NCBI GenBank assembly: GCA_964419615.1
Contig: CAYQPU010000026.1
Coordinates: 11,781-23,701, forward strand
Direction of reading: 5' to 3'
Length of the DNA stretch: 11,921 nt
Source of the DNA: an uncultured Methanosarcinales archaeon
Lineage (GTDB): Archaea; Nanobdellota; Nanobdellia; Woesearchaeales; JAGVZT01
How positions within the stretch are numbered: position 1 is the first letter of the stretch; every line of letters starts with the position of its first letter. The translations under genes were made by a program, and so were the position numbers. Below, piece by piece: positions 1,761 through 10,117 of this stretch. The notes beneath the pieces were generated by a model. It was not told the origin of the DNA, did not search any database, and was given only the letters and a program-made list of their open reading frames with translations.

Positions 1761-2072
1761 TTTTTGTCGTCGGTGTAGGATTGGGTAAAAGTGATTTTGC
1801 TTAGAAGTTGTTAGCATTAGGTTCATACTTTGTTGTGAGTGCAATCAAAAACTTTATTAACTGAAATCAACACCTAGTCACTTAACATGAAAAAAAGTGA
1901 TTTAGTTCATTGTTAGAAATCTATTTTTACTAGTTACCATAATATTCTCATCAAAACTACATAGGTAGCTCTGCTACCCAAAAAAAAGATTTTATCCTCT
2001 ATAAATTAGATATTATTATTTGAATTACTGATAAGTATCCCATTTTTAGTCACTAACTCGTGACGACAAAAC

Positions 2073-2087
2073 CAAAAGATTTAAATA
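2073..2087 (+). promoter_or_regulatory. Putative BRE/TATA promoter driving the mini-ORF / structured RNA / tRNA-His region
   Basis: CAAAAGATTTAAATA. The identical 15-mer occurs on the minus strand at 7518-7504, upstream of the DUF2683 antitoxin gene. Confidence 0.6.
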
Positions 2088-2118: not shown

Positions 2119-2178
2119 ATGACAAAACTAATAATCCAGGATAAAGCAGTCAAAGCTGCTGATCGTGTTCATTGTTAG
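2119..2178 (+). CDS. 19-aa mini-ORF MTKLIIQDKAVKAADRVHC (candidate precursor or leader peptide 1)
   Basis: ATG lies about 30 nt downstream of the TATA box (short-leader geometry). It shares KAxKxAxxVH with the mini-ORF at 2870-2932. Not in the supplied ORF track. Confidence 0.45.
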   Translation: MTKLIIQDKAVKAADRVHC

Positions 2179-2244
2179 TTGTAAATCTATTTTTAATATT
2201 TTTAATAATAACATCTTGAACAATAATTCTCAATTTACAGATAG

Positions 2245-2428
2245 CAATGCAATCCAACCAACGCAGGCACAGACGGACTTTTGTCAAAACCAAAAGTCCT
2301 ATTCCATTGAACAGAACCGTAAACTATGCACAGAAAAATGCTTTGCATTTTTGGTGTCCAGGAAATTTAGTGATTTCCTTGATTTAAGAACCTATTCAAT
2401 TACATCTGGCCAAGGTTGGATTGCATTG
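2245..2428. ncRNA. 184-nt multibranched structured element (candidate ncRNA or MITE-like element)
   Basis: Perfect 15-bp closing stem CAATGCAATCCAACC (2245-2259) / GGTTGGATTGCATTG (2414-2428). Internal stems: 2275-2282/2292-2299, 2306-2314/2392-2400, 2334-2341/2345-2352 and 2360-2366/2373-2379. Confidence 0.55.
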
Positions 2429-2438
2429 GAATTTCTGA

Positions 2439-2535
2439 GAAATCCAGCCATGGTGCTGGTCGGACTGGGGTTGGGCCCTTCGGGCTGTCCGACGAGGAGC
2501 AAAGCGACGACAGCTACCATGGATGGCTGGATTTC
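2439..2535. ncRNA. 97-nt GC-rich branched hairpin (candidate ncRNA or cis-regulatory RNA)
   Basis: Stems GAAATCCAGCC/GGCTGGATTTC (11 bp), ATGGT/ACCAT, GCTG/CAGC and GTCGGAC/GTCCGAC, with an apical GCCC-TTC-GGGC. It is a GC island in AT-rich DNA, 34 nt upstream of tRNA-His #1. Confidence 0.55.
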
Positions 2536-2569
2536 ATCATTATCATCTATATTATATAGACTATGGAAT

Positions 2570-2728
2570 GGCAGTGGTGGTGTAATGGTAGCACTTTGGA
2601 CTGTGGTGACCTTTTACAAAAAGCTCAACCAAAAGATGGGCGACATTCAGCTTAAAAAAACGCTGAAGTCCCCTGTAAAAAGTTGCAGATCTCCAATAGC
2701 GCGGGTTCGATTCCCGTCTACTGCCCCA
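2570..2728 (+). tRNA. tRNA-His(GUG) #1 with an 84-nt BHB intron at canonical position 37/38 (intron 2607-2690); G-1 and CCA encoded
   Basis: G-1 (2570):C73 (2725); acceptor GCAGTGG/CTACTGC; D-arm GTGT-AATGGTA-GCAC; anticodon stem TTGGA/TCCAA; T-arm GCGGG-TTCGATT-CCCGT; CCA at 2726-2728. BHB: central helix CTGT/GCAG, bulges GG|T and AT|C. Confidence 0.93.
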
Positions 2729-2869
2729 TTCATTAACAAATTACCTTTATCTAATATGTTTCATAGTTGTTAATTCTAATCATTAACTAAATGGATTTTT
2801 TTGTGTAATTAATACAAATCTAAAACTTAAACAAACAGCCGACTGGGCTTTAAACAGGGAGGAAACAAA

Positions 2870-2932
2870 ATGAAAACAACAAATGAGGCTAAGGCGTTAA
2901 AAGACGCTGGATATGTTCACAAGAATTTGTGA
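2870..2932 (+). CDS. 20-aa mini-ORF MKTTNEAKALKDAGYVHKNL (candidate precursor or leader peptide 2)
   Basis: Strong RBS GGGAGG at 2857-2862, 7 nt before the ATG. It ends 32 nt before the radical SAM start. Not in the supplied ORF track. Confidence 0.65.
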   Translation: MKTTNEAKALKDAGYVHKNL

Positions 2933-2964: not shown

Positions 2965-4248
2965 ATGAAACGATCTAGCGACTATGTTGACAGGCTTAGA
3001 GAATGGAATAAAGCACAAGTTCTTGGACTAGCAAAAAGAGGATTGCTAAAACCAGATATAAACCCTATGACTACTTTGATTATGAACACAATGATTACAA
3101 CAATGGGAGTCAAAGCAAAGCAAGAAGTAGTGGAAAAAATCTCAAAGATAGCACTTAGAGGAGCACAAGCACCTGAACGAACAAAAAATGTAGGTGTTGG
3201 GATAAGTTATGGTCCAGGATTTAGAACACAAATGCCTATTGAGTCAATGTATGAACCAAATGATGGATTTAACCAAGGTTCAGCATTAACCCTAAAAGAA
3301 AAACAAGGAGACTTTTGGATTCAATGTGACTATGATGGAGAACTAAAGATGCCTGTGAATATTTGGGAAGGTCCCTCATGGTACCCTAGACAGATTCCAA
3401 ATAAGGAAGATCCAGAAAACCCATTTACACTATCTCAGTTAGTCCAAAGTGAGCTAGGTGTTCTGATGCTAAGTATCCCAGATAAGGATGGATTTCAGAG
3501 ATGTACCTACATAGAGAGAGATGAAGGATGCAAAATGTGTGGTATGGAAACAGATTACCAACCACTCACACCAGAATTATTGGTTGAGATAGTTGAGATG
3601 GATCTGCAGGAAAACCAGACAAATATAACTATGACTGGGGGAAATAACTACACCGCAGATAGGGGGATTAAAAAATACATCCCTTTTGTAGAGGCACTCC
3701 GCAAAAGATTTGGAGAAGAGTTGCCCATACAACTTGAGATCAGTCCACCACAGCAGGAAGAATATCTGGAATGGATGGCCGAAAATAAGTTATCAGCTTG
3801 GTTTAATCTAGAGATGTTTCCTTTTGACAAAGCTTCAGAAATTCTTAGGGAGAAGGTGATGCCAGCCAAGTCAAAGATTCCTTTAGAAGACTATTTTCAG
3901 AGCTTTAAGTTCCTAAACAATAGAGGACTTGAAACATACAGCGTGTTGATTGCAGGGTTGCAACCTCTTGAAGGAATCTACAAGGGAGCAGAAGCTCTCG
4001 CTGAAATAGGAACAACAACCGCAGTATTACCCTTCAAACCAAATGCTGACTCAGCATATCAAAGCAGGTTCCCTTGTTCTGTACCTGAGTTTATAGAGGC
4101 AACAATGGGTGTTGATAAAATACTGAGGGAAAGAGGATTAGACCTTACATCAAGAAGTGAGAACTGGTGTTCAGGCTGCGGAGGATGCGGAGCAGACAGA
4201 AACTATGCATTCAACAGAGAGCAAATAGTTGAGGCTTGGTCAAAATGA
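2965..4248 (+). CDS. Radical SAM protein (biotin-synthase-related COG2516 / MSMEG_0568-like), 427 aa from the RBS-supported ATG
   Basis: CX8CX2C motif CTYIERDEGCKMC, MTGG, LEISPP, LIAGL, VLPFKP and a C-terminal CSGCGGC. RBS GGAGGTG (2953-2959) supports ATG 2965 over GTG 2929. The family call is from motif recall, not a search. Confidence 0.85.
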   Translation: MKRSSDYVDRLREWNKAQVLGLAKRGLLKPDINPMTTLIMNTMITTMGVKAKQEVVEKISKIALRGAQAPERTKNVGVGISYGPGFRTQMPIESMYEPNDGFNQGSALTLKEKQGDFWIQCDYDGELKMPVNIWEGPSWYPRQIPNKEDPENPFTLSQLVQSELGVLMLSIPDKDGFQRCTYIERDEGCKMCGMETDYQPLTPELLVEIVEMDLQENQTNITMTGGNNYTADRGIKKYIPFVEALRKRFGEELPIQLEISPPQQEEYLEWMAENKLSAWFNLEMFPFDKASEILREKVMPAKSKIPLEDYFQSFKFLNNRGLETYSVLIAGLQPLEGIYKGAEALAEIGTTTAVLPFKPNADSAYQSRFPCSVPEFIEATMGVDKILRERGLDLTSRSENWCSGCGGCGADRNYAFNREQIVEAWSK

Positions 4249-4643
4249 GAAGAGTAACAAACTGCGAACTCTATAAGGCAATAGGTCCATATTCTTATGG
4301 ATGTTTTGCCAATTTTTTATTTTTTTCCAGTGGAATAACAGGTATAGATCCAAAAACAAATACCTTAGTGAATGCTTCACTAAAAAAAGAAATCACGCAG
4401 CTAATGGAAAACATAGACAAATTATTGAGAACTGTTAATCTGAAATTTTCAGATGTAATCAAAGTGACAGTATACTCCACAAACATATCTCTTTACAAGG
4501 AATTTAACAAAATCTATAGAGGATATTTTGAATCAAGTAACTATCCTGCACGAACTTTTGTTGAAGTAAGTGATCTACCAGGAAAAGCTAGATTTGAAGT
4601 TGACTTAATTTGCACAGCAGGTGAGCAAGATGAAAGAAATTAG
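4245..4643 (+). CDS. ridA: RidA/YjgF/UK114 family enamine/imine deaminase
   Basis: AIGPYS, SG(I)TGIDP, VIKVTVY, FNKIY..YF, PART (catalytic Arg) and LP...FEVD. ATG 4245 overlaps the radical SAM stop (ATGA). Confidence 0.88.
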   Translation: MRRVTNCELYKAIGPYSYGCFANFLFFSSGITGIDPKTNTLVNASLKKEITQLMENIDKLLRTVNLKFSDVIKVTVYSTNISLYKEFNKIYRGYFESSNYPARTFVEVSDLPGKARFEVDLICTAGEQDERN

Positions 4644-5622
4644 ACTTGATTATGCTGATGTAAAATTCCCACCGAGTAATAGAGTAGTTAAGCAACTCTC
4701 ATCAGAACTCAATAAAGTTAATCTCTATCCAAGAAAAATTTACCTAAAGCTAAAACAAAAACTAGCAGACTACTGTAATGTAAGTCCAGATAATATTTTA
4801 TTGACAAATGGTTCAGATGAGGCAATTGATCTGATCACAAATGCATATGGAAAAACAGTTTTAGTACCTGCTCCAACATTCTCAGAATATGAACGAGCAG
4901 CATTAAGGAATAAATGCAATATCAATAAAGTCAACTGTTTAAAAGGAAAGGATTACTCAACCAATTTTTCTGATAATGATTTAGCTAAGTCAAATCTTGT
5001 GTGGATCTGCAATCCAAATAACCCAACTGGCACAACAATTCCCGAAAAAACAATAGATTATATTCTGAAAAGATCAGTAGGATATGTTGCTGTTGATGAA
5101 TGCTATTATGAATTCTCAAAAAAAACTGTAATTCCTCTTCTAAAAGAATTTCAAAACTTGATTATAATAAGAAGCATGTCAAAAGGATTTGGCCTTGCTG
5201 GGTTAAGACTTGGTTACATTATTGCTGACAAGAGAATAATTAATGAATTAGAGCAGAGAAAACAGATTTTTAGTGTTAATCGAATTGCAGCAAAAGCAGG
5301 GTTGCTTGTTTTAGAGGACTTACAATACTATAAGAACTCAATAAATAATTTAATTGAGAACAGAGAAGAATTTAAAAAAGATCTTACTATTTTAGGTATT
5401 AATGTATTTGAATCAGACACAAATTTTGTGTTCATTTGTTTTAAAGACAAATATACAGTAGAGAAAATATACTCTTGCCTTAAAAGCAGAAGAGTATTTG
5501 TGTTTCCTGCTTGGGACTCAGAATTCTCAGGACCAGCAGGTTTTTCTCTAAGAATTGCAATAGGAGGAATAGAAGATCTAAAGATTATAGCAAAATATTT
5601 AAAAGAAGTTTTGGATAAGTGA
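4630..5622 (+). CDS. PLP-dependent aminotransferase, class I/II (histidinol-phosphate aminotransferase HisC / CobD-like)
   Basis: TNGSDEAI, PTFSEY, CNPNNPTG, DECYYEF and RSMSKGFGLAGLRLGY (PLP lysine). RBS GCAGGTGA precedes ATG 4630, and the gene overlaps ridA. Confidence 0.85.
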   Translation: MKEIRLDYADVKFPPSNRVVKQLSSELNKVNLYPRKIYLKLKQKLADYCNVSPDNILLTNGSDEAIDLITNAYGKTVLVPAPTFSEYERAALRNKCNINKVNCLKGKDYSTNFSDNDLAKSNLVWICNPNNPTGTTIPEKTIDYILKRSVGYVAVDECYYEFSKKTVIPLLKEFQNLIIIRSMSKGFGLAGLRLGYIIADKRIINELEQRKQIFSVNRIAAKAGLLVLEDLQYYKNSINNLIENREEFKKDLTILGINVFESDTNFVFICFKDKYTVEKIYSCLKSRRVFVFPAWDSEFSGPAGFSLRIAIGGIEDLKIIAKYLKEVLDK

Positions 5623-6923
5623 TTAATATGAAACTAGAAACAGCAAAAGGAGTGAGAGATTTTCCTCCAGAAGAGAAAATAATCAGAGAAAAGGTAGTTA
5701 ATACTCTCAAAACAGTCTTTGAAAAATACGGCTTTAATCCATTTGAACAGCCAATCATAGAAAAACTTGATGTACTAACAGCAAAGTTTGGAGCAGGAGA
5801 ATCCTCAGATGTTTACAAAGAAATCTTTAAACTTACAGATCAGGGAGAAAGAAAATTAGGGCTTAGGTTTGAACTAACGCTTGGACTATGCAGATACATA
5901 GCCATGAACCCAAAAATAAAACTTCCTTTCAAACGCTATGAAATAGGTCGGGTATACAGAGATGGGCCAATCAAGCTTGGCAGATACAGAGAATTCTGGC
6001 AATGTGATGTTGACATAGTTGGAACAGGTTCAATGATAGCAGATGCAGAAATCATTGGAATTTTGGCAGAAGCATTTGAAAAACTTGAGTTTGATGTTGA
6101 AATTGAGGTAAGTAATAGAAAGCTATTAGACGGAATGCTAGAACAAGCAGGAGTAAAAGAATCTTTAAGAAAAAAAGCTATGATAAGCATTGACAAACTA
6201 AAAAAAATAGGGATAAAGGGCGTAGCACAAGAACTAGAAGAGAGTAAAATAAGTAATGATTCAATATCTAAATTAAAAGAACTTTTAGCAATAAAAGGTT
6301 CAAACCTAGAAAAATTATCACAATTAGATAAAGCAATTAATAATGAAATTGGCAAACAAGGTTTAAAAGAGCTAAAAGAAATATTTGAGTACACAAAGGC
6401 AATTGGCACTAAAAATATTATTTTTAACCAGACACTTGCCAGAGGACTTGCTTACTACACAGGCCCTGTGTTTGAAGTATTTTTGAAGAACTCAAAAATC
6501 ACTTCAAGTGTCGCTGGCGGTGGAAGATATGATGAATTTATTGGTAACTTCCTTGGCGGAAAAAAGCAAATACCTGCAACAGGAGTTGCATTTGGCCTTG
6601 AGCCAATCACAGAAGCAATCAAACTAAAACAAAAGGATATTCCAAAATCAGTCGCACAAGTCTACGTAATCCCTATCAAAGTTAAAAAACAGGCATTAGA
6701 AATAGTCCAAACCCTAAGGAAGGCAGAGATCAAAGCAGATTTTGATCTAATGGATCGCGGGTTAAGCTCGAACCTGGACTATGCAAATAAGATGGGGATT
6801 CCTTATGTTATTATTGTAGGTCAAAAAGATCTTGACAATAAACAAGTTACTGTTAGGAATATGAAAACCGGGAAAGAGGAGAAAATTGCTCTGGATAAAC
6901 TCACTACAATTAAATTCAACTAA
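5619..6923 (+). CDS. hisS: Histidine--tRNA ligase (archaeal/eukaryotic type); start at GTG 5619 or ATG 5628
   Basis: KGVRDF, LRFELT, RVYRDGP...GRYREFWQCDVDIVG, ARGLAYYTG, GGGRYD, GVAFGLE and a C-terminal anticodon-binding domain. Confidence 0.96.
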   Translation: MINMKLETAKGVRDFPPEEKIIREKVVNTLKTVFEKYGFNPFEQPIIEKLDVLTAKFGAGESSDVYKEIFKLTDQGERKLGLRFELTLGLCRYIAMNPKIKLPFKRYEIGRVYRDGPIKLGRYREFWQCDVDIVGTGSMIADAEIIGILAEAFEKLEFDVEIEVSNRKLLDGMLEQAGVKESLRKKAMISIDKLKKIGIKGVAQELEESKISNDSISKLKELLAIKGSNLEKLSQLDKAINNEIGKQGLKELKEIFEYTKAIGTKNIIFNQTLARGLAYYTGPVFEVFLKNSKITSSVAGGGRYDEFIGNFLGGKKQIPATGVAFGLEPITEAIKLKQKDIPKSVAQVYVIPIKVKKQALEIVQTLRKAEIKADFDLMDRGLSSNLDYANKMGIPYVIIVGQKDLDNKQVTVRNMKTGKEEKIALDKLTTIKFN

Positions 6924-7609: not shown

Positions 7610-8158
7610 GTGATAAGAAAATACGCCTTATTCAAGGTCTTTGAATGCCTAAGAAACACAGATCAAGAAGAATCAGTTAGGTCATTAGCAAGAAAAGCAG
7701 AAGTAGGAGTTGCAACATCCAAAAGATGTCTGGATTATTTATTTGAAAATAAAGTTGTGAAGCGAAAGGTGATTGGCAGGTTATATCAGTATCAGTTAGA
7801 TCAAGAAAACTTTCTAACAAGGCAATTAAAAACAACAATGTCTTTGGCAGAAATTAGAAAATCCGGACTCATCGAAGAAATTTTGGAAAAACAACCAAAT
7901 GTTTTATCAATTGTGTTATATGGATCAGTATCAACTGGAAAGGACACAATGAAAAGTGATATTGATCTATTAATCATCTCAACAAATAAGTTAAAAATTG
8001 GGTTGTTAAAATCAGAAAAAACCCTAAAAAGAGAATTATCAATAATTAACTATTCTCATTCAGAATGGAGGAAAAAATCTTTAACAGACAAACCCTTCTA
8101 TGACTCTGTAATCACAGAAGGAACACGCCTTTTTGGTGAGATGCCTGTGGTGAGATAG
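7610..8158 (+). CDS. Winged-HTH fused to a minimal nucleotidyltransferase (MNT antitoxin)
   Basis: N-terminal HTH SVRSLARKAEVGVATSKRCLDYL and MNT motif LYGSVSTGKDTMKSDIDLLII (GSx10DxD). Probable leaderless GTG start. Confidence 0.85.
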   Translation: MIRKYALFKVFECLRNTDQEESVRSLARKAEVGVATSKRCLDYLFENKVVKRKVIGRLYQYQLDQENFLTRQLKTTMSLAEIRKSGLIEEILEKQPNVLSIVLYGSVSTGKDTMKSDIDLLIISTNKLKIGLLKSEKTLKRELSIINYSHSEWRKKSLTDKPFYDSVITEGTRLFGEMPVVR

Positions 8159-8577
8159 TGAATTTACATGAGTGCTTTGAAAAAGGTCTATTAAAAAAAG
8201 AAGTTCCAAATAAGGATAAATCCAGAAAATCAATTCAAATAGCCAAACATAAATTAAATCTAGCAAAAAAACTATGCAAACTAAATATTTTTGAAGAGGC
8301 TGTCACAAATTCATACTCTGCAATGTTTCATGCAGCAAGATCTTTACTGTTTAAAGACGGGATCAGGGAAAAAAGTCATTATGGCCTGTTTGTGTATCTG
8401 AGGGAAGAATATTCAAATAAATTTGAAAAAAGATTTCTAACAGAATTAAATGCCTTAAGACTTGAAAGACACAAAATAAGCTATGGTCTGGAAACCACAA
8501 AAATTACCAAAGAAGAGGCCAATACAATAGTTGAAGTAGCGGCTGAATTTTTGGTTGCTGTTGAAAAGCTTAAATAA
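8158..8577 (+). CDS. HEPN domain protein (toxin partner of the MNT)
   Basis: AVTNSYSAMFHAARSLL...REKSH; 139 aa. The start overlaps the MNT stop, the usual MNT-HEPN arrangement. Confidence 0.85.
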   Translation: MNLHECFEKGLLKKEVPNKDKSRKSIQIAKHKLNLAKKLCKLNIFEEAVTNSYSAMFHAARSLLFKDGIREKSHYGLFVYLREEYSNKFEKRFLTELNALRLERHKISYGLETTKITKEEANTIVEVAAEFLVAVEKLK

Positions 8578-9902: not shown

Positions 9903-10117
9903 GACGGTAGCCGGGATTTTCACATAAACTTTCAAAAGCTGATAGGGGGCTAAGCGAACAAAGAGAGCGCATGCCGCCTTACCTTTGATCAAATCCACGA
10001 AAACAAAGTTTTCGGGACACGGAAATTATTAATTTCCCGCGCTTTGTAAAAGTTTGATTTGAACCCGGGCCGCAAGATCCACAGTCTTGAATGCTGCCAT
10101 GCTACACTACTACCGTC
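9903..10117 (-). tRNA. tRNA-His(GUG) #2 with a 141-nt BHB intron in the T-loop at 59/60 (intron 10057-9917); G-1 encoded, CCA not encoded
   Basis: G-1:C73; acceptor ACGGTAG/CTACCGT; D-arm GTGT-AGCATGGCA-GCAT; anticodon arm CAAGA-CTGTGGA-TCTTG; T-arm CCGGG-TTCAAA|T-CCCGG. BHB: central helix TTCA/TGAA, both bulges AA|T. Confidence 0.92.

Follow-up and report, generated by a model that had tools for sequence, protein, structure and literature searches.

Histidine-linked mini-ORFs as candidate +1 frameshift leaders ahead of tRNA-His, hisS and a variant radical SAM gene in woesearchaeal archaea

The locus and its three mini-ORFs

In this study, an 11,921-nucleotide stretch of DNA (hereafter the window) was analyzed from an archaeon deposited as an uncultured Methanosarcinales archaeon and placed by GTDB in the Woesearchaeales (GenBank assembly GCA_964419615.1, contig CAYQPU010000026.1, positions 11,781 to 23,701 of the forward strand). 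The subject is a set of three very short open reading frames (mini-ORFs), which lie upstream of the gene for a variant radical S-adenosylmethionine (radical SAM) enzyme and are read here as putative sensors of histidine supply. The following features are all on the plus strand. A FAD oxidoreductase gene (68-1405) is followed by mini-ORF copy 0 (1887-1916, 9 codons), copy 1 (2119-2178, 19 codons), two GC-rich structured elements (about 2245-2535), an intron-bearing tRNA-His(GUG) gene designated tRNA-His #1 (2571-2725; Rfam RF00005, 49.1 bits), and copy 2 (2870-2932, 20 codons). The radical SAM gene (2965-4248), which matched PF04055 weakly and TIGR04043 and NF045502 below their cut-offs, precedes genes for a RidA-family imine deaminase (4236-4643; PF01042, 97 bits), a HisC-like class I/II aminotransferase (4621-5622; TIGR01141, 258.7 bits against a cut-off of 276.55) and histidyl-tRNA synthetase (HisRS), hisS (5619-6923; TIGR00442, 364 bits). 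These four enzyme genes overlap one another by 4-23 nucleotides (nt).

Copies 1 and 2 had been pointed out in a reading made from the letters of the window without database searches (the sequence-only reading), and both were found at the coordinates given above. As claimed there, their 10-residue stretches are identical at 6 of 10 positions plus a V/L pair, and the synonymous differences AAA/AAG, GCA/GCG and CAT/CAC between them are present. The promoter proposed for copy 1, consisting of a B recognition element (BRE) and a TATA box, was likewise recovered as AAAGATTTAAATA at 2075-2087 (+), 31 nt ahead of the ATG; this box is an exact match to AAANNTTTAAATA. The GGGAGG proposed as the Shine-Dalgarno (SD) sequence of copy 2 lies at 2857-2862 (+), 7 nt ahead of the ATG, and is complementary to the 3′ end of the 16S rRNA of the same genome.

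Copy 0, overlooked in that reading, shares the C-terminal motif and the post-stop sequence. It contains an SD-like AGTGAT, a spacer codon, the codon GTT (1905-1907) and the His codon CAT (1908-1910), with a stop 2 codons past the latter. The codon immediately before His is called the slip codon below, after the role proposed for it. A TATA-like box read from the sequence at 1852-1860 (+) lies 26 nt ahead of the ATG of copy 0, and this spacing suggests that its transcript is leaderless or nearly so. In copy 1, the SD-like GCTGAT (2158-2163) is followed by slip codon GTT (2167-2169), His codon CAT (2170-2172) and the stop (2176-2178), and comparison with the orthologue at locus L002 revealed an in-frame 3-nt indel. 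Copy 2 has slip codon GTT (2915-2917), His codon CAC (2918-2920) and its 0-frame stop at 2930-2932. The 0-frame stops of copies 1 and 2 are thus 2 and 4 codons past His, respectively.

The six frames of the whole genome (1.48 Mb, 99% complete) were searched for ORFs of 30 aa or fewer with the pattern [small]-[D/G]-x-[V/L/I/P/M]-H and a stop within 3 residues. Only 7 ORFs matched, 3 of which are inside one 1.1-kb stretch of the window; the remaining 4 are intragenic and without promoter. A chance match, which the sequence-only reading could not exclude, is now excluded, since 3 of the 7 matches cluster in 1.1 kb, five other lineages have the motif ahead of their radical SAM homologue, and genomes without the radical SAM enzyme have it upstream of hisS.

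Between copy 1 and copy 2, tRNA-His #1 has an 84-nt intron after position 37, G-1 at 2570 and the anticodon loop CUGUGG, as read from the sequence. ARAGORN reported no tRNA in the window, and Rfam was needed to find the intron-bearing genes. Of the two structured elements at 2245-2535, one is a long hairpin with a closing GAAATCCAGCC... stem and the other measures 184 nt. Rfam gave no match for either, and alignment with a GC-rich element at the same place before the tRNA gene in L016 gave no convincing homology.

Genes behind the mini-ORFs

The search upstream of radical SAM homologues that the sequence-only reading had proposed gave the motif in all six lineages with upstream sequence (the window, L002, L004, L009, L016 and L019), often in multiple copies. 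No credible motif was found at the radical SAM locus of genome G048, and no His motif at the distant radical SAM-aminotransferase loci L023 (where the pair is followed by the arginyl-tRNA synthetase gene, ArgRS), L024 and L025. Upstream of the radical SAM-aminotransferase-ArgRS operon of L023 (4828-4924), two other mini-ORFs were observed, one of them leaderless and one with three near-terminal Arg codons; this single case hints at analogous sensors for other amino acids. A word-based protein search returned only 3 relatives of the radical SAM protein, an exhaustive search extended these to a wider variant radical SAM family, and a scan of the genome and metagenome contig collections with the radical SAM alignment yielded nothing new.

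The radical SAM gene itself is rare. Of 201 genomes sampled from the order (Woesearchaeota-type DPANN archaea), 2 contain it, as do 2 of 41 relatives and a handful of metagenomic relatives. The mini-ORF family was found near hisS, tRNA-His or hisG in at least 14 other genomes of this order, all without the radical SAM gene. None of the conclusions draws on the unpublished genomes G006, G118, G127, G138 and G188. With an amino-acid regular expression, 108 hisS-upstream regions of 1.5 kb from genomes without the enzyme yielded 12 good sense-strand members, about 1 match being expected from the background in the window's own genome (~0.006 per kb). In a strand control on 80 hisS-upstream regions, 10 matches were on the sense and 0 on the antisense strand. 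A scan at the nucleotide level gave 17 sense and 6 antisense matches, and the full signature was confined to the sense ones.

In genomes without the radical SAM gene, mini-ORFs are located upstream of tRNA-His and hisS (L051, L060 and L076), directly upstream of hisS (L111 and L128), upstream of HisG-like genes (L044, L098 and L115) and upstream of a MazG/HisE-like gene (L086). A tRNA-His gene beside the mini-ORF was detected at six loci by ARAGORN and at two more by the anticodon loop CUGUGG. The common factor of these neighbourhoods is histidine, not the radical SAM enzyme. In the sequence-only reading, copies 1 and 2 had been taken mainly for precursors of peptides that are made on ribosomes and modified after translation (RiPPs). 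The co-occurrence with the maturase fails in this survey, the mini-ORFs tracking tRNA-His, hisS, HisG-like and MazG/HisE-like genes instead; since they follow histidine genes in genomes lacking the enzyme, the peptides are most unlikely to be its substrates. The same reading had noted a Y-x-H spacing like that of the biarylitides, in which a pentapeptide (M-x-Y-x-H) is combined with a P450. Of the three window copies, just one shows this spacing; C, L or R replaces the Y in homologues, and no P450 is among the window proteins.

The radical SAM protein contains CX8CX2C plus a C-terminal CX2CX2C, and these cysteines are invariant. Its AlphaFold model (pLDDT 95) is nearest in fold to LipA, HydE and BioB, with TM-scores of about 0.4; SkfB and SuiB, which are peptide-modifying radical SAM enzymes, were also among the fold-search matches, at low rank. 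Profile searches of the protein gave no match to PF13186 (SPASM) or to an RRE domain. The HisC-like aminotransferase follows the radical SAM gene in 9 of 9 homologous loci that extend past the gene; L025, the most distant homologue, is without aminotransferase. The loci often have hisS downstream and tRNA-His upstream.

The pair formed by the variant radical SAM enzyme and the HisC-like aminotransferase was observed in the window (2965-5622) and in L004, L009, L016, L019, L022, L023 and L024. It adjoins hisS in four lineages and ArgRS in L023, and is near a class Ib aminoacyl-tRNA synthetase gene in L019. In protein P0051 (783 aa), an archaeosine-type RaSEA radical SAM domain is naturally fused to a variant radical SAM domain that belongs to the family described here.

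The pair lies behind the mini-ORF leaders in six lineages, including two (L009 and L019) in which no hisS adjoins it, an arrangement that appears to make it part of the histidine regulon in genomes where the canonical his pathway is missing. In the window's own genome, hisD, the IGPD gene (hisB) and hisF were searched for and not found, and no second HisRS gene was found, the window copy being the single one. If the leaders act as proposed below, they suggest a link to histidine for both the variant radical SAM enzyme and the HisC-like aminotransferase and would assign the two to the histidine regulon of an organism without the canonical his pathway. The pair would then be marked as a candidate for a route of histidine, or more generally amino-acid, supply so far unknown; such a function is possible.

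Several further observations were made around these genes. Directly downstream of hisS is a nucleotidyltransferase/HEPN pair resembling a toxin-antitoxin system (7610-8577). A second, divergent tRNA-His(GUG) at 9903-10117 (-) has its own BRE/TATA box and an insertion of ~140 nt in the T-arm region; Rfam scored it at 15 bits only, and ARAGORN gave no match. In the whole genome, ARAGORN found 5 tRNA genes and Rfam 10, several of them with long introns (spans of 103-164 nt). Because so few were found at 99% completeness, the majority of the tRNA genes of this genome must be interrupted or otherwise unusual.

Codon signature and reading frames past histidine

His is preceded by GTT, CTT, ATT or CCC in each of the 24 copies, and the regular expression by which copies were accepted allowed any V, L, I, P or M codon at this position. 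Among synonymous codons in the window genes, the shares of these four are 0.44 (GTT), 0.22 (CTT), 0.46 (ATT) and 0.08 (CCC). Counting one copy per locus, the joint probability of the bias is ~1e-9, a rough yardstick given that codon usage varies among genomes. Leu before His is never encoded by TTA; one codon earlier, TTA does occur. The two codons upstream of the spacer are almost always NGT or GCT and then GAT, GGT or GGA, reading GUGAU, CUGAU or similar. GUGAU is complementary to AUCAC within the 16S 3′ end of the window's own genome (GGATCACCTCCT), and the SD-like GUGAU/CUGAU sits 3 nt, i.e., one spacer codon, ahead of the slip codon. By their sequence, NUU-C and CCC-C are +1 slippery sites.

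The similarity between the peptides had been taken to indicate conservation at the protein level. This holds for the N-terminal half of the long forms, in which the K-A residues use all synonymous codons. It does not hold for the C-terminal core; since constraint there acts on the nucleotides and not on the encoded residues, the apparent peptide motif would largely be a nucleotide device. An in-frame ATG is present in 20 of the 24 copies and either has a TATA box at leaderless spacing or follows an SD sequence. The BRE/TATA box lies 22-36 nt ahead of the ATG in 11 homologous loci, and the remaining mini-ORFs have an SD sequence. With such starts, the mini-ORFs are likely to be translated, most of them as leaderless ORFs.

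Reading frames were then compared past the His codon. In 19 of 20 sites, the 0 frame is closed by a stop 1-7 codons on, and in the other (L019c) after 12 codons. The open length in the +1 frame has a median of ~55 codons versus ~12 codons for the +2 frame, and the +1 frame is the longer one in 16 of 19 sites (p = 0.004). Open +1 lengths included 200, 65, 76, 31, 40, 405, 55, 256, 79, 84, 70, 119 and 53 codons. At least 50 codons are open in 11 of 19 sites; with stops taken to occur at 0.08 per codon, the expectation for any one site is 1.5% (binomial 8e-16).

In copy 1, the +1 frame (2168-2773, +) is open for 200 codons and runs across both structured elements and the entire tRNA-His #1 gene with its intron. 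The +1 frame of copy 2 (2916-2978, +; 19 codons) has its stop at 2976-2978, 9 nt after the ATG of the radical SAM gene (2965). Similar contacts with the next gene were found elsewhere. The +1 frame overlaps the hisS start as ATGA in L051, L060 and L128, its stop is inside the hisS SD sequence in L076, and the +1 path is fused in frame to hisS in L111, to the HisG-like gene in L044 and to the radical SAM gene in L019. All four copies without ATG (two in L016, one each in L019 and L115) occupy the +1 frame of the copy before them. Three shifts in a row would, in L016, connect 196 open codons through the tRNA-His gene, ending 46 nt before the radical SAM gene.

Folding predictions gave a hairpin at copy 2 in which the region of the slip and His codons pairs with the spacer between the SD sequence and ATG of the radical SAM gene (-29.8 kcal/mol; z = -3.06; 1 of 200 shuffles equally stable). 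Past copy 1, the predicted fold is weak (z = -1.95), and no conserved structure was seen around the motif. T5 tracts, which are terminator-like signals in archaea, are located 10-25 nt past the stops of copies 0 and 1.

Proposed mechanism and comparison with known systems

From the motif, its conservation, the link to histidine genes, the nucleotide constraints and the pattern of open frames, we infer a ribosomal slip, its dependence on histidine and a switching of downstream genes. On this evidence, the mini-ORFs are probably histidine-starvation-induced +1 frameshift leaders, acting in cis as sensors rather than through peptide products. The sequence-only reading had offered a His-sensing leader as its second choice; that choice gained support here, and the evidence points to a +1 frameshift device instead of an attenuator with a run of codons. 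In the proposed geometry, the His codon CAY would occupy the A site and NUU or CCC the P site, with the SD-like GUGAU/CUGAU further upstream. When His-tRNA-His is plentiful, the His codon would be read, the nearby 0-frame stop reached, and the ribosome would leave. When it is scarce, the A site would stay empty and the P-site tRNA would slip by +1 (NUU to UUC, or CCC to CCC). The slipped ribosome would then follow the stop-free +1 frame across the leader, tRNA-His gene included, as far as the next gene's start. Downstream expression might be raised by termination-reinitiation, melting of RNA structure, suppression of transcription termination, or a mixture of these; a ribosome kept behind RNA polymerase could suppress termination at the T tracts, and melting could act on the hairpin predicted over the radical SAM start region at copy 2.

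In the window, the device would work in two stages. A shift in the promoter-proximal, almost leaderless copy 1 would open 200 codons through tRNA-His #1, and a shift in copy 2, which has its own SD sequence, would bring ribosomes to the start of the radical SAM/RidA/aminotransferase/hisS genes. Chaining of sites would sharpen the response. The fuller scheme, in which chained +1 sites in leaderless mini-ORFs gauge charged tRNA-His and the shifted ribosome crosses the tRNA-His gene to reach hisS, hisG or, in the window's genome, the enzyme pair, is put forward more tentatively, with confidence slightly short of even.

Several findings weigh against a frameshift leader. About 85% of the sampled genomes have no such element within 1.5 kb of hisS, and each copy has only 1-2 His codons. 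In the extended-SD register, the distance from GUGAU to the P-site codon is like that in initiation, unlike the strained 3 nt of prfB, and its effect may be no more than a ribosomal pause. Once slipped, AUU and GUU tRNAs re-pair with a first-position mismatch. The N-terminal K-A-x-x-x-A is conserved as protein, which the model accommodates only by assuming a nascent-chain effect; the conserved residues may act via the exit tunnel. Between the end of the copy 1 +1 frame and copy 2 there are 97 nt, so that coupling there is indirect. In copy 0 and L098, the +1 frames are short, 19 codons each, that of copy 0 ending at 1968; the +1 frame in L128 also has 19 codons, yet ends on the hisS ATG.

The strongest of the alternatives, though an unlikely one, is that histidine is sensed by ribosome stalling alone. 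A ribosome paused at the His codon would melt a hairpin or mask a terminator or processing site, so that a downstream start is exposed or read-through is allowed, as in classical or ermC-type translational attenuation. The link to histidine genes fits stalling as well as it fits frameshifting, and the predicted copy 2 hairpin over the SD-ATG spacer of the radical SAM gene (z = -3.06) and the T5 tracts past copies 0 and 1 are what such a mechanism could use. Stalling alone leaves unexplained the constant NUU/CCC before His, the +1 frames that are open across tRNA genes and end on the next start codon, and the position of the ATG-less copies in the +1 frame of the previous copy. In addition, no match to His_leader or T-box was obtained with Rfam in the window.

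It is improbable that the long +1 frames are overlapping small genes with starts of their own, the mini-ORF serving as a modulating upstream overlapping ORF. Such initiation could use the +1-frame GTG found within the AGTGAT/GGTGAT motif of several copies, and the frame of copy 1 does appear in the ORF list of the window as a 202-aa GTG ORF (2165-2773). However, 9 of 20 sites have no +1-frame start codon upstream of the slip site, and at four sites, copy 0 among them, a +1-frame TAG stands immediately ahead of the slip codon. The +1 products span tRNA genes and introns, a Pfam search matched them to no protein family, and the conserved His codon is not accounted for by this explanation.

About equally improbable is the view that the motif serves, as RNA or DNA, to bind a regulator or, in a T-box-like manner, tRNA-His, with only an incidental resemblance to an ORF. 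Constraint of the core at the nucleotide level and the tandem copies are as expected for a binding site. A binding site is at odds with the well-placed in-frame ATG of 20 of 24 copies and the location of the other four in a preceding +1 frame, with the in-frame indel between the window and L002 orthologues, with the synonymous variation of the upstream K-A residues, and with the lack of a conserved structure around the motif (z = -1.95) or of any Rfam match. Identity as a T-box riboswitch was considered and rejected, no Rfam model matching even at E up to 1.

The RiPP interpretation, in which the neighbouring radical SAM enzyme, alone or together with the aminotransferase and RidA, modifies peptide or scaffold precursors, draws on the six of six lineages with the motif upstream of the enzyme gene, the multiple copies typical of RiPP loci and the low-ranking SkfB and SuiB folds, and is rejected as the least credible. 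It is contradicted by the distribution across genomes (enzyme in 2 of 201, mini-ORFs in at least 14 without it); copies of just 8-10 codons, the tRNA gene and, in L004, a 387-aa ORF that can intervene between peptide and enzyme, and an enzyme whose best folds are LipA, HydE and BioB and in which neither SPASM nor RRE was detected also speak against it.

For bacteria, leader ORFs that sense amino acids are textbook knowledge. In the literature searched, no published archaeal example was found, and nothing specific was found on the gene cluster, archaeal His leaders or Woesearchaeota tRNA-His. A 2021 review of archaeal recoding gives one proven cellular frameshift, a -1 shift in fucA1, together with predicted viral and Mg-chelatase cases (PMC8211752). 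The probable frameshift device is undescribed in the archaeal literature searched and would be a new variant on known recoding and leader principles.

Closest in role among known systems is the enterobacterial hisL attenuator, which also has a short ORF 5′ of a histidine-related operon, the translation of which reports the supply of His-tRNA-His. It differs in having seven consecutive His codons and terminator/antiterminator hairpins; the device combines just 1-2 His codons with a slippery codon and a +1 frame that is open, and no conserved hairpin switch was seen. The genes regulated by the device would include tRNA-His and hisS. The short ORF before cognate amino-acid genes was found here, and the run of cognate codons was not. 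In mycobacteria, leaderless polycysteine short ORFs are reported to be Cys-responsive attenuators (bioRxiv 10.1101/834739). As described there, they share with the device a leaderless mini-ORF that comes first on a polycistronic transcript and senses the cognate amino acid, and differ from it in acting by runs of Cys codons and stalling, with no frameshift. The mycofactocin (MftA/MftC) and PQQ (PqqA/PqqE) systems resemble the window in having very short ORFs, sometimes multicopy, beside a radical SAM gene. Unlike such RiPP systems, the mini-ORFs occur mostly without the enzyme, and have a nucleotide device as their core; no RRE or SPASM domain was found beside them.

In mechanism, the closest known systems are those of +1 recoding, namely the prfB site together with Ty1 and 'hungry codon' shifting. 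As in prfB and Ty1, a re-pairable P-site codon (24 of 24), a near 0-frame stop and an open +1 frame reaching the next gene were found. Ty1 (CUU-AGG-C) and 'hungry codon' shifting both involve a +1 slip from CUU with the A site awaiting a scarce aminoacyl-tRNA, as proposed here. Ty1, a yeast element, depends on a constitutively rare tRNA and gives a fixed product ratio. Frameshifting at hungry codons in starved E. coli is described as a starvation error where the review above cites Gallant and Lindsley (PMC8211752), whereas the device would be a conserved regulatory switch.

In the case of prfB, the autoregulated gene of bacterial release factor 2 (RF2, CUU-UGA-C), the likeness extends to the re-pairable NUU codon in the P site (here often CUU), a nearby 0-frame stop, an internal SD-like element at one codon's distance that may act as a stimulator in the device, and an A-site codon whose decoding, presumably slow under starvation, would report the level of the regulated function. 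The differences are that the device would sense a His codon and charged tRNA-His rather than a stop codon and release factor; that its site is in a tiny leader, outside the regulated gene, at most loci; that its sites are chainable and the +1 frame passes through a tRNA gene; that the host is archaeal; and that its SD-like element pairs with another part of the anti-SD, so the effective spacing differs. If the proposed reading is correct, a tRNA gene can sit inside a translated frame, the leaders offer a handle for finding regulons in uncultured DPANN archaea, and a sense-codon sensor joins the short list of regulatory +1 frameshifts now represented by RF2 and antizyme.

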